From an uncultured Clostridia bacterium (GTDB taxonomy: Bacteria > Bacillota > Clostridia > Christensenellales > CAG-917), in assembly GCA_944372795.1 (NCBI GenBank), contig CALWAF010000002.1, positions 72,558 through 136,557 on the forward strand: a DNA stretch of 64,000 bases, read 5' to 3'. Position numbers and translations under genes: made by a program. This document shows positions 3,002-7,805 of this stretch, piece after piece (within the stretch, counting starts at the first letter, position 1; the number at the start of each line of letters is the position of its first letter). The notes beneath the pieces were generated by a model. The model did not search any database. It was not told the DNA's origin and was given only the letters and a program-made list of their open reading frames with translations.

Positions 3002-3094
3002 GGAGGAGTCGCCTAGTTTGGTCGAGGGCGCACGACTGGAAATCGTGTAACCGTCAAAAGCGGTTCGAGGGTTCGAATCCCTCCTCCTCCGCCA
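3002..3094 (+). tRNA. tRNA-Ser (anticodon GGA), CCA encoded
   Basis: Hand-folded cloverleaf. The acceptor is GGAGGAG/CTCCTCC and the anticodon stem is CACGA/TCGTG with loop CUGGAAA (anticodon GGA). A long variable arm (ACCG..CGGT) is typical of Ser, and the T arm is GAGGG-TTCGAAT-CCCTC. The discriminator is G, followed by CCA. Confidence 0.93.
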
Positions 3095-3403: not shown

Positions 3404-4540
3404 TTATATGCGCATTATCAGTTGAAAGTCAATCATTCTCGGCTGCTTTACGTTCTGAATATATATCGGGTACGGCACGTTGTCCGTATAAAAGGAAAAG
3501 CCCTGACTTTCGTCAAGGCTTATCGTTCTCGGGGTGTTGTATACGATTATCATTTTATCGTCGAACAACTGTATTTCTTTTACAAGCAGATTTATCAGCA
3601 TTTTCGGTTCTTGCTCCAACGCGAATTTATAAAAGTCAGCAATTTCCTTTCTGTCGAGTTTGAACGCCGAATGAGATTGCTCTATGCGTATCTGTTTTTC
3701 GAGTTCCGCATTTTTCTCTTCGAGTTCTCGTAATCGTTTCATCGCCGTGTTGCTCGTGCCGCCGTTTTCGATAGCGGTCATAATATTGTTTATGGAGTTT
3801 TCCGTAGCGCGTTGTTCTTTAACTAATCTCGTCAATGCCGAATTGGCTTTTATGTAATCCTCCTGCATTGTCATTAGTTCGCTGACGATATAGTCCATAT
3901 TGTTGCTTAACTGCGTTATGATATTTTCAAGCACATAATTTTCAAGGACTTCCTTTCTTGCTTGGGACTTTTTACAGCCATTGCCGTTCTTACGCCCCAA
4001 ACACTTGTAATAGCGTTTTCGCTCGCCGTTCTTTGCCGTGCCGCACTCCGCGCTTACGGGACTGCCGCAATAGCCGCATTTCATTTTATGGCGCAATAAA
4101 TATACGACTTCGGTACTGCGTTTTCCGTAATGATTGCTGTCTATCTTTTTACGGACAATATCGTATGTTTCCTGCGGTACGATTTGCGGATAGATATTGG
4201 TGAACACTTCGCCGTTATATCTGTATATCCCTGCGTATTTTTCGTTTTTGAGTATGTTGTAAACGGTATTTCGGGCGAAAGGCTTGCCGCGATTATAAAT
4301 GCCTTTTACGGTCAACGCCTTTATAATATCTTTTACATACACACCTATTGCGTATTGCTCGAAAATATATTTCACCGTTTCGGCTTTATCTCCGTTTCGA
4401 CACTTGAAATTATACACTATTTTTCGCTTTGAGCGTGAGTAGGTGAAAGTATACTTTCCGTAGCAAAACCGACACTTTCCGATACTGAAAGTATACAAAC
4501 AGCGAAAAACCGCCGATATACGGATACCGACGGTATACAT
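3404..4540 (-). pseudogene. Large serine recombinase lacking its N-terminal catalytic (resolvase) domain
   Basis: The 378-aa ORF has a recombinase-domain-like segment (ETVKYIFEQYAIG..IIKALTVKGIYNRGKPFARNTVYNILKNEKYAGIYRY). It also has a zinc-ribbon (KCGYCGSPV..YYKC..NGCK) and a C-terminal coiled coil. No Ser-containing resolvase domain is present. An in-frame stop lies 4 codons upstream of the first Met, and only about 170 nt separate it from the next cassette. Confidence 0.7.
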
Positions 4541-4564
4541 TAGCGTTACAACTCAAATACAGCC

Positions 4565-4622
4565 GCACGGGAGATAAGGGCGGATCGCCAAGCAGTTCAG
4601 CGGCGACCGCCCGTTCCCGTGC
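4565..4622. repeat. GC-rich extended hairpin at the recombinase/cassette junction
   Basis: The outer arms are GCACGGGA (4565-4572) and TCCCGTGC (4615-4622). The inner arms are GGGCGGaTCGCC and GGCGACCGCCC. Confidence 0.65.
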
Positions 4623-4656
4623 GCTTTGAGTTTCGCTTTGTTCTGTTGTTTGTTAT

Positions 4657-4713
4657 GGCGGGTGCTTGAACGGCGAGGCGCAGCCGAGCCGCTCGTTTAT
4701 TCAAGCACCCGCC
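4657..4713. repeat. Hairpin with a perfect 14-bp stem at the junction
   Basis: GGCGGGTGCTTGAA (4657-4670) pairs with TTCAAGCACCCGCC (4700-4713) around a 29-nt GC-rich loop. Confidence 0.7.
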
Positions 4714-4766
4714 ACAGTGCCATTTGAAGTTTTTCAAGAATTCTACGTTCGCAAACTCAATAGCGG

Positions 4767-4795
4767 TTGAAAAATTTAGAAATTTATGCTATAAT
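4767..4795 (+). promoter_or_regulatory. Near-consensus sigma-A promoter of the island cassette
   Basis: TTGAAA (4767-4772), a 17-nt spacer, then TATAAT (4790-4795) with a TGc extended -10. It lies about 20 nt upstream of the GTGAGG SD and the ATG at 4817. Confidence 0.65.
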
Positions 4796-4816
4796 AATAA
4801 AAAAGTGAGGTTGATT

Positions 4817-5689
4817 ATGAAATCGTTTAGAGATTATAAAGCTGAAGAAAGAAGAAATTATATTACCTTATCATCAGGGGAGTATTATCCTGACATTTTG
4901 GTTGATGCATGTAAATTATATTCTCCTGTATTAACTATTTTTTCAGAATTATTGCATTCCTCCGAAAGTTCTATAGCCCTATTTAAAAACATTTGTAAGA
5001 CACCCACTCAATGGATGAGAATTCAACTTTGTAGAGTATTTAGAAAGTACTGCTCTCCTGAAACACCAGTTGAGATGCTTAAAAAATCTTCCCAAGTAAT
5101 CAAAATATGTAATGAGTTTGGTGAGGGATTTCGACCAATTAACATTATCCAAGAAAGATTTGATTCTCGTCCTTTCCCTGATGAAGCGTTATGTGCTGTT
5201 CTTTGGGAGTATAAAGACAGAGGGCAAAAGGGATACGATTTGACCGAAAAGTTTTTTGACATCATTGAGTCTACATTTTCAGATGTTATTATTTGGGGTC
5301 CCCGTCGTTCTGGCGCAGATATTCAACCAATATCGTTTTGGAAAGACTATCCTAATGCTCGTCGTCCGCTTGATTTTGTAATTTCATCTCCTGATAAATC
5401 TGTTATTTATGCCGTGGGTCTTGCGAGATATGATGGCGATAGAGGTGGTGCTCAAGAGGATGATAGAACTGGTGGATACAAAAACTGTGCAGACGAAATA
5501 CTAGACTATGTAAAAAGCCACAATCTTCACACAAAAGTCATATTTGTAAATGACGGTCCAGGATTGTTGTTAGGGTCTATGTGGGAAGACTACTCTATTA
5601 TCGAAGAAAGATACAAAGACGAGTGTATCGTGACAACATTAAGAATGATTCCAGAAAGGATTTCTAAAGAATGGTTACTTGGACGGTAA
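4817..5689 (+). CDS. Hypothetical 290-aa protein; candidate restriction endonuclease or effector partner of the downstream methyltransferase
   Basis: I chose the ATG at 4817, which has a GTGAGG SD and lies downstream of the promoter, rather than the track start at 4724. The ORF is AT-rich and ends 6 nt before the methyltransferase ATG. I could not assign any catalytic motif. Confidence 0.6.
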   Translation: MKSFRDYKAEERRNYITLSSGEYYPDILVDACKLYSPVLTIFSELLHSSESSIALFKNICKTPTQWMRIQLCRVFRKYCSPETPVEMLKKSSQVIKICNEFGEGFRPINIIQERFDSRPFPDEALCAVLWEYKDRGQKGYDLTEKFFDIIESTFSDVIIWGPRRSGADIQPISFWKDYPNARRPLDFVISSPDKSVIYAVGLARYDGDRGGAQEDDRTGGYKNCADEILDYVKSHNLHTKVIFVNDGPGLLLGSMWEDYSIIEERYKDECIVTTLRMIPERISKEWLLGR

Positions 5690-5695
5690 AACAAA

Positions 5696-6937
5696 ATGGC
5701 AACTGGGATACCTAAGAAAAAAAAATCTTCAAAAAATAGTATTATTGAATTAAAATATGATATAAAAATAAACAAAGAAGATTTATTGCAATCTCATTAT
5801 TCTTGCTATACCGATATTTGGAGGACTCAAGACAATGCATTCAATAAACTGTTTTATGGTGACAATTTAGATGTTCTTCTTTATTTGCTCAATAATGGCT
5901 ATAAAAATACTGTCAATTTGATTTACATAGATCCACCATATTCGACATCATCAGTGTTTGTAAATCGTGAGCAGAAAGTTGCCTACCATGATACTTTAGA
6001 TGGATATGATTATATTGAGTTTTTACGAAGGCGTTTCTTAATTATGTATGATTTGCTTTCTCAAACTGGCTCTTTTTATATTCATTTAGATGAGAGAATG
6101 GTTTTCCCTATAAAAATAATTTTAGATGAAATTTTTGGCGTTTGTAATTTTAGAGCATTCATTACACGAAAAAAATGTTCACCCAAAAATTCCACAAGAA
6201 CTACCTATGGGGATATTTCGGACTATATATTGTTTTACTCCAAAACGAAGAATTATGTGTGGAATAGACCATATGTAGCCTGGTCGAATGAAAAAATAAT
6301 AGAACAATACCCTTGTATTGATGAAGCCACTGGACGCCGATATAAAAAAGTTCCTATACATGCACCAGGGGTAAGAAATGGAGATACGGGAAAACCCTGG
6401 AGAGGTATGATGCCTCCACTTGGAAAACACTGGCAATATACACCTGAAAAATTAGATATGCTTGATGCTGCTGGTGAAATAGCGTGGAGTAAAAATGGAA
6501 ATCCCAGAAGGAAAGTCTTCTTTGATGGAAAACAAGGCATTCCAATGCAAAATATTTGGCTTGATTATCAGGATTTTGTTAACCAATCCCAGATTTCGAC
6601 TGGATATCCAACAGAAAAAAACATTGAAATGTTAAAAACAATTATTTCAGCATCTTCCAATAAAGGCGATATCGTACTTGATTGCTTTGCTGGAAGTGGA
6701 ACAACACTATCGGCGGCCGAGTTGCTTGAACGGCGTTGGATTGGCGTTGATAATAGTCAAGAAAGTATACAAACTATAATTTCACGTTTGCTATTTGAAG
6801 AGCAATCTTATGGGGATTATGTAATCAAACGACGTAGTAATTCTTGTAGCAGGAAACTTACGAAGTGTGCCTTTCAAATCTTTGCAATTGAGAAAGATAA
6901 AAACAATATTATTTCTTATTGCAACTTAAACAAATAA
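5696..6937 (+). CDS. Site-specific DNA methyltransferase, beta-class N6_N4 family (probably N6-adenine)
   Basis: 413-aa ORF. Motif IV LIYIDPPYSTSS precedes motif I VLDCFAGSGTT, which is the beta-class order. FYGDNLDVLLYL and DEIFGVCNFRAFI resemble Mod-like methylases. Confidence 0.88.
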   Translation: MATGIPKKKKSSKNSIIELKYDIKINKEDLLQSHYSCYTDIWRTQDNAFNKLFYGDNLDVLLYLLNNGYKNTVNLIYIDPPYSTSSVFVNREQKVAYHDTLDGYDYIEFLRRRFLIMYDLLSQTGSFYIHLDERMVFPIKIILDEIFGVCNFRAFITRKKCSPKNSTRTTYGDISDYILFYSKTKNYVWNRPYVAWSNEKIIEQYPCIDEATGRRYKKVPIHAPGVRNGDTGKPWRGMMPPLGKHWQYTPEKLDMLDAAGEIAWSKNGNPRRKVFFDGKQGIPMQNIWLDYQDFVNQSQISTGYPTEKNIEMLKTIISASSNKGDIVLDCFAGSGTTLSAAELLERRWIGVDNSQESIQTIISRLLFEEQSYGDYVIKRRSNSCSRKLTKCAFQIFAIEKDKNNIISYCNLNK

Positions 6938-6978
6938 CAATTCGATTTACGTTACTAACGCTCCGCCACAGCAGAAAA

Positions 6979-7011
6979 ATGCGAACCCCGAAAAGGGGTG
7001 CGCATTTTTTT
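6979..7011 (+). terminator. Rho-independent terminator of the cassette
   Basis: ATGCGAACCCC-GAAAA-GGGGTGCGCAT forms an 11-bp stem with one mismatch, followed by T7. Confidence 0.85.
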
Positions 7012-7141
7012 GTTGCAGCAGAGGCGGAGAAAAGGGACGAACCCTTGCGGCATAAAGTCAATTTGAGCAAAGACAAATTCCCGATATATGCATTCATAAA
7101 TGTGTGTGCAAACGACATGTTACCGCAGGGTTCGGCGGCTT

Positions 7142-7765
7142 GCGAAGCAAGACGCTTTCGCCTTTTCCTACGGCTTATAAAAGGCACAAAGTCTGCTGAA
7201 ACGTTATACCTATTCGGCGTCATGACCTTATGGCGAACATCCCTCCGCCATTGCATGAGTCGGAGGGATTCTTACCCGTGGCTGACGCGAGTTGTTCGGT
7301 GACGATTTTCCTCCCCGCACGACACTCGTTGATCAACGGCACCACGACGAAAATCCCACACATCTTCCTTTTCCCCTCACATCCTCGCTATTCCGTCGCG
7401 CTTCGCGCTCCTTACGAATCCCTCCATACTATGCGAAGCAAGACGCTTTCGCCCTTATGCCCCACAAAGTGTCCTCACTTTCTCCCCGCGGAAAATTATT
7501 TGCATGGACCTCACGTTGCGGTACTTTGCGGGGACCCCGATTTTAGCGAACATCCCTCCGCCATTGCATGAGTCGGAGGTATCCTTACCCGTGGCTGACG
7601 CGATTTGTTCGGCGGCGCGCACGGCGCGACGCTTTCGCCCTATGCCCCACAAAGTGTCCTCACTTTCTCCCCGCGGAAAATTATTTCGCATGGACCTCAC
7701 GTTGCGGTACTTTGCGGGGACCCCGATTTTAGCGAACATCCCTCCGCCATTGCATGAGTCGGAAG
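7142..7765. repeat. Tandem or dispersed intergenic repeat array (about 186-bp unit)
   Basis: Units at 7442-7627 and 7628-7765 are near-identical over 138 bp, differing by two single-nt indels. A partial 72-bp module sits at 7233-7304. The head motif GCGAAGCAAGACGCTTTCGCC occurs at 7142-7162 and 7433-7453. Each copy carries a CCCTCCG-N13-CGGAGGG hairpin. Confidence 0.85.
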
Positions 7766-7775
7766 GATATTACAA

Positions 7776-7805
7776 TAAAAAACGGGCGGACATTTACGTC
7801 CGCCC
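7776..7805 (-). terminator. Rho-independent terminator of the GPH transporter gene
   Basis: The minus strand reads GGGCGGAC-GTAAAT-GTCCGCCC followed by G TTTTTT, about 25 nt after the stop at 7830. Confidence 0.85.

Follow-up and report, generated by a model that had tools for sequence, protein, structure and literature searches.

A two-gene cassette predicted to encode a horizontally acquired BstEII-family Type IIP restriction-modification system

A compact two-gene cassette near the left end of the window (the whole 64-kb stretch of DNA that was analyzed) is very probably a horizontally acquired Type IIP restriction-modification (R-M) system of the BstEII family, the prototype of which cleaves G^GTNACC. 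By homology, its first gene, ORF1, codes for an intact, full-length restriction endonuclease that is neither a fragment nor the founder of a new family, and its second gene codes for a methyltransferase that is predicted to protect the same sites. From these sequence relationships, the cassette is best viewed as an uncharacterized representative of a restriction enzyme family that is already known and has a solved structure.

Layout, base composition, and surroundings of the cassette

The cassette and its upstream neighbors comprise the following features, with coordinates given as positions in the window.

3002..3094, + strand: tRNA-Ser(GGA); the low-GC tract begins directly after it
3404..4540, - strand: large serine recombinase pseudogene, 5'-truncated, with the Recombinase and Zn_ribbon_recom domains only
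4767..4795, + strand: sigma-70-type promoter-like site, TTGAAA-17 nt-TATAAT with a TG extension, assigned by consensus match alone
4805..4810, + strand: Shine-Dalgarno-like GTGAGG, 6 nt 5' of the ORF1 ATG, read off the sequence
4817..5689, + strand: ORF1 (R gene), ATG at 4817 and stop ending at 5689, 290 aa, a predicted BstEII-family Type IIP restriction endonuclease
5696..6937, + strand: M gene, ATG 6 nt past the ORF1 stop, 413 aa, a beta-class N6_N4 DNA methyltransferase
6961..7029, + strand: terminator hairpin, with a GC-rich inner stem (6980-7004) and then a T-run, within a longer inverted repeat

The coordinates of the two genes, the 6-nt gap between them, and the near-consensus, TG-extended promoter are as given in a preliminary description of this DNA, as judged from the sequence and from a consensus scan. 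With 11 of 12 consensus positions matched, the promoter-like site scores highest in the 3 kb scanned (4400-7400), a region in which promoter-like sites are not enriched overall (13 versus 9.6 expected). The ATG at 4817 agrees with the N termini of ORF1 homologues in an alignment. A second candidate promoter, a weak match of the form TTGAGT-16-TATTAT, lies inside the R gene at 5265-5292, upstream of the methyltransferase. At the other end of the unit, the terminator was previously credited with an 11-bp stem; there is indeed a stem of 11 positions that forms a strong hairpin and is followed by seven T residues, but it includes one mismatch and is itself enclosed by the longer hairpin at 6961-7029, which has a predicted dG of -42.2 kcal/mol (z = -7.4), with none of 200 shuffled sequences folding as well. 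DNA similarity to related cassettes (∼69%) is limited to the two coding regions, and the promoter and terminator are therefore local features; the promoter DNA is not conserved in distant relatives of the cassette. We propose that R and M are transcribed, in that order, as one operon that extends from the single promoter at 4767-4795 to the hairpin, as suggested by the consensus matches, and the short gap between the genes may provide for translational coupling.

The cassette, very probably acquired horizontally, has a foreign base composition, with a G+C content of 34.6% (36.5% in ORF1 and 33.3% in the methyltransferase gene) versus 58.5% in the rest of the window. It is the lowest-GC stretch in the window, as had been noted, although the 60 to 67% earlier quoted for the host is somewhat high, the 2-kb bins of the remainder ranging from 55 to 63%.

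The recombinase pseudogene upstream is the 3' two-thirds of a gene, with 95% identity to aa 154 to 497 of a 497-aa homologue, and its catalytic resolvase domain is missing throughout the 64-kb window, which places the cassette within a decayed integrative element. Insertion of the cassette into the recombinase gene was considered as the cause of the truncation and rejected, as no part of the window codes for the missing domain and ∼350 nt separate the cassette from the breakpoint (∼4390-4420). A search for att-type direct repeats of the 3' end of tRNA-Ser, which could have marked the limits of the island, was negative; the one resemblance, 21 nt at 7257-7277, is in inverted orientation. The small flanking ORFs, scanned one by one, have no Pfam match, and none of the flanking ORFs is an HTH gene, such that a small controller gene of the C-protein type is absent from the vicinity of the cassette. 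The cassette is present with 100% identity and the same neighbors in four further metagenome contigs, and no empty, cassette-free site was found among contigs carrying an identical neighboring MFS gene. Separately, a repeat search detected 186-nt repeats that were missed by Tandem Repeats Finder.

ORF1 and its relationship to BstEII

ORF1 had been placed in no known nuclease family, leading to the suggestion that it is either a new or highly divergent restriction endonuclease or a different kind of methylation-guarded effector. Both suggestions give way to a match with a characterized family: a phmmer search of the PDB aligned residues 2 to 287 of ORF1 with residues 3 to 285 of BstEII (chains 9ibq_A and 9ic8; E = 5e-81) as the sole strong full-length match, and BLASTP aligned the two proteins over 287 aa with 49% identity and 64% positives (E = 4e-88). 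A 29-kb plasmid (CP128495) of Geobacillus stearothermophilus ATCC 12980 encodes a protein with 100% identity to the BstEII sequence in the PDB.

The structural comparison that the preliminary description had proposed, Foldseek with an AlphaFold model, likewise finds a nuclease. An AlphaFold2 model of ORF1, computed with a 30-sequence alignment as input (mean pLDDT, 83.6), has a helical N-terminal half (residues 1 to 153) and an alpha/beta C-terminal half, and its only significant match in the PDB is 9ibq_A (E = 7.4e-26; probability, 1.00), an entry released on 2026-03-04 under the title "Structure of BstEII with DNA substrate." The global TM-score between the model and 9ibq is only 0.55, which we attribute to differences in how the domains are placed between an apo model and a DNA-bound crystal, together with a low-confidence loop at residues 206 to 220. 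Weak Foldseek matches to the PD-(D/E)XK proteins EcoT38I, SfsA, Nt.BspD6I, and MUS81 are not significant.

ORF1 is also well conserved at the positions that define the family. It was compared with 29 other family members drawn from the two clades described below and keeps all 76 of the columns that are invariant among them and 96 of 97 near-invariant columns; it is full length relative to its homologues, which disposes of the possibility, raised earlier, that it is a truncated fragment. The invariant residues include P184-x-D186, A203-R-Y-D206, D208-R-G-G211, Q213-E-D-D-R217, K240, and N245-D-G-P-G-L250, and the two segments previously singled out as weak nuclease motif candidates, RRPLDFVI and GLARYDGDRGGAQEDD, map in the alignment onto the most conserved and largely invariant blocks of the family. 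Seven candidate acidic residues (D186, D206, D208, E214, D215, D216, and D246) are invariant in the family alignment. Inspection of ORF1 by eye reveals no classical PD-(D/E)XK, HNH, or GIY-YIG motif, and no fit of its catalytic residues to the classical PD-(D/E)XK pattern was found; literature searches found no paper behind 9ibq and 9ic8, and those on the structure and fold of BstEII gave no assignment of catalytic residues.

It is easy to see why ORF1 was difficult to place. It matches no profile in Pfam, NCBIfam, or PADLOC, but this reflects the lack of a model for this nuclease family in the three libraries rather than novelty of the protein, and members of the family are labeled "hypothetical protein" in public records; several homologues are named "BstEII" in UniRef. 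The missing models and this annotation together account for the difficulty.

The methyltransferase and its linkage to the nuclease

The M gene product was described as an intact methyltransferase with both DPPY and FAGSGTT motifs, and this description holds. It matches PF01555 (N6_N4_Mtase) with an E value of 1.7e-45 and a score of 156.1 bits, against a gathering cutoff of 26.7, and the PADLOC MTase_II profile PDLC03354 with an E value of 8.8e-137. DPPY (motif IV, aa 79 to 82) precedes FAGSGTT (motif I, aa 331 to 337), which is the circularly permuted order of the beta class. The protein shares 54% identity with the enzyme adjoining R.BstEII on plasmid CP128495 of G. stearothermophilus, and from these comparisons it is an intact beta-class DPPY enzyme orthologous to the methyltransferase of the BstEII system. 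In beta-class methyltransferases the target recognition domain (TRD) is located between motifs VIII and X, and the putative TRD in this interval is 59% identical to that of the BstEII-linked enzyme, a degree of conservation equal to that of the catalytic motifs.

DPPY is the usual motif IV of N6-adenine enzymes, whereas N4-cytosine enzymes usually have SPP(Y/F). M.BstEII is listed among adenine methylases (preprint 10.64898/2026.03.21.713436). From that listing and the DPPY motif, and from the orthology with M.BstEII, the window's enzyme most likely methylates N6 of the one adenine that each strand of the palindrome GGTNACC contains.

Linkage of nuclease and methyltransferase is obligate across genomes. 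An orthologous methyltransferase, 47 to 64% identical to that of the window, lies immediately downstream of the ORF1 homologue in all 93 loci that were fetched. This linkage, the methyltransferase profile matches, and the contrast in G+C content together support the earlier view of the unit as a self-contained, foreign Type II R-M cassette. The genes are organized as in the window, collinear with R before M, in 91 of these loci, including those of Actinobacillus ureae, Campylobacter concisus, and many metagenome-assembled genomes (MAGs) of gut Clostridia. In the remaining two, those of the BstEII prototype and of Gloeothece PCC 7424, the M gene converges with R and has a small HTH_17 gene ahead of it.

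The nuclease family is large and taxonomically broad. Searches with two queries (E ≤ 0.001) gave 3,474 and 3,531 homologous protein clusters, respectively, at a clustering level of 90% identity, and relatives are encoded in at least 559 species-representative genomes, with members in the Bacillota, Verrucomicrobiota, Chloroflexota, Cyanobacteria, Pseudomonadota, Campylobacterota, Acidobacteriota, and candidate phyla. A very widespread family, with more than 3,400 clusters, therefore has no profile in any of the three libraries searched, and surveys of defense systems will consequently score such loci as orphan methyltransferases. The family falls into two clearly separate clades: members of the window's clade are 72 to 79% identical to each other and 45 to 49% identical to members of the BstEII clade, and an ARYDxDRGGxQEDDR block and an NDGPGLxLGSMW motif are identical across both clades in the alignment.

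Recognition sequence, alternative readings, and related systems

If the system operates as its relatives suggest, the methyltransferase would mark the GGTNACC sites of the host, most likely with N6-methyladenine, and the nuclease, most likely a homodimer, would cut unmethylated GGTNACC in incoming phage or plasmid DNA, a prediction that draws on the 49% identity to BstEII and the retention of the invariant residues. GGTNACC recognition with m6A protection is thus probable, although 49% identity makes an unchanged recognition sequence likely without guaranteeing it.

The principal alternative is that the system belongs to the same family but that its recognition sequence has changed, with the window's clade targeting something other than GGTNACC. 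The separation of the family into two clades with different gene organizations is in keeping with such a change, and literature searches on GGTNACC methylomes and BstEII relatives gave no measured specificity for any member of the window's clade. GGTNACC is also not avoided in the window; a search for under-representation of the motif gave 11 sites in the 64 kb compared to 9.4 expected, a count that has little power and is uninformative at this sample size, and a recently acquired system would not yet have depleted its sites. However, R and M have diverged in step (49% and 54% identity, respectively), the putative TRD retains 59% identity with the BstEII-linked methyltransferase, the two long motifs noted above are the same in both clades, and homologues of A. 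ureae and of cyanobacteria, drawn from both clades, are called "BstEII" in UniRef. We therefore regard a change of recognition sequence as unlikely. The broader proposition that the collinear, regulator-less clade has diverged functionally, either by altered recognition or by a different way of delaying the nuclease on entry into a host (for example, by use of the putative internal M promoter at 5265-5292), is similarly doubtful.

A second alternative is a system in decay, with an active methyltransferase and a nuclease killed by point mutations, leaving what is effectively an orphan methyltransferase. The location of the cassette within a degraded island beside a truncated recombinase gives some reason to consider this, but ORF1 is full length and free of frameshifts, keeps every family-invariant residue, and recurs with 100% identity in four independent metagenome contigs, making decay very improbable. 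Finally, the reading of ORF1 as a new nuclease family or a methylation-guarded effector outside restriction, which is favored by the lack of Pfam, NCBIfam, and PADLOC matches and of any classical nuclease motif visible by eye, is rejected as having almost no chance of being correct, given the full-length and highly significant homology, in sequence and in fold, to a classical enzyme crystallized with its DNA substrate and provided that the PDB entry is correctly named.

As a BstEII-family R-M system, the cassette would be a routine accessory defense element and carries little weight for biology in general. For attempts to transform the window's host, a barrier of the GGTNACC type is to be expected.

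The closest characterized relative is the BstEII system of G. stearothermophilus, which resembles that of the window in having an R protein of the same length that is homologous from end to end and in having adjacent R and M genes. The two differ in gene organization: the prototype has a 60-aa HTH_17 gene ahead of an M gene that converges with R, whereas the window's R and M genes are collinear, lie 6 nt apart, and have no accompanying regulator. The window's R protein belongs to a clade of the family separate from that of BstEII. Cassettes of Actinobacillus ureae ATCC 25976 (HMPREF0027_0798, named "BstEII" in UniRef), of Campylobacter concisus, and of many gut Clostridia, Oscillospiraceae, and Lachnospiraceae MAGs are in the window's clade and have the same collinear R-then-M order, gaps of a few nucleotides, and equal protein sizes. 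Relative to the window, the cassettes of its clade have R proteins with 72 to 79% identity and M proteins with 54 to 62% identity, and they differ in their hosts and flanking DNA. Among other enzymes, Eco91I is an isoschizomer of BstEII, and EcoO65I and PspEI are further GGTNACC isoschizomers (REBASE). Eco91I is tabulated with the recognition sequence GGTNACC (PMC3299994). All three enzymes presumably share both their recognition sequence and their Type IIP behavior with the system in the window.

An integrative-element remnant beside tRNA-Ser

To the left of the cassette lies a gene for a large serine recombinase that lacks its 5' end, and the missing resolvase catalytic domain was not found anywhere in the whole window.

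3404-4540, minus strand: large serine recombinase, 5'-truncated, with 95% identity to aa 154 to 497 of a 497-aa homologue (P0241)

This gene, left over from an integrative element, adjoins tRNA-Ser(GGA) (3002-3094).

Repeats and contig ends around the cassette

Both GC transitions of the cassette coincide with copies of a 9-nt direct repeat, CCGCCACAG (4709-4717 and 6963-6971), each of which, as read from the sequence, lies within a GC-rich hairpin arm. The pair could represent a junction or target duplication, or could have arisen by chance; a rough estimate puts the probability of such a pair in two 60-nt windows at ∼1 to 2%, for a repeat that was spotted post hoc. Just 5' of the cassette promoter, at 4656-4714, is a perfect 15-bp GC-rich inverted repeat with arms TGGCGGGTGCTTGAA and TTCAAGCACCCGCCA and a 29-nt loop, which may insulate the cassette against read-through.

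Two metagenome contigs, L011 and L015, both of which carry the identical MFS transporter gene, end shortly past the cassette terminator, ∼110 to 130 nt farther right, at the following window positions:

7138: end of L011
7117: end of L015

These breaks could mean that the island is present in some strains and absent from others, disrupting assembly, or simply that coverage is low. At 7228-7803, the non-coding spacer that separates the cassette from the MFS gene contains three partial copies of a repeat at ∼186-nt spacing, with the common core GCGAACATCCCTCCGCCATTGCATGAGTCGGAGG. Among otherwise identical metagenome contigs, the distance from the methyltransferase gene to the MFS gene is either 707 or 893 nt, a difference of exactly one repeat unit. 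The spacer repeats had no match in an Rfam search and were not reported by Tandem Repeats Finder.

Plasmid-borne relatives and the BstEII prototype clade

Distant relatives of ORF1, the BstEII-family nuclease of the cassette, are present in Acinetobacter johnsonii and A. seifertii (matches H2 to H4, 32 to 33% identity) on small, non-mobilizable plasmids of 8 to 9 kb. All are annotated as "hypothetical protein," and at least one adjoins a site-specific DNA methyltransferase.

The collinear clade, in which nuclease and methyltransferase genes follow one another on one strand as in the window, is without a small gene seen in the BstEII prototype clade, where the gene for a 60- to 75-aa HTH_17 protein immediately precedes that for the methyltransferase:

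7151-7333 of L008: HTH_17 gene in the BstEII prototype locus (plasmid of Geobacillus stearothermophilus ATCC 12980)
6163-6390 of L009: HTH_17 gene in the Gloeothece PCC 7424 locus

In the prototype clade, the HTH_17 protein may act as a controller-type regulator.
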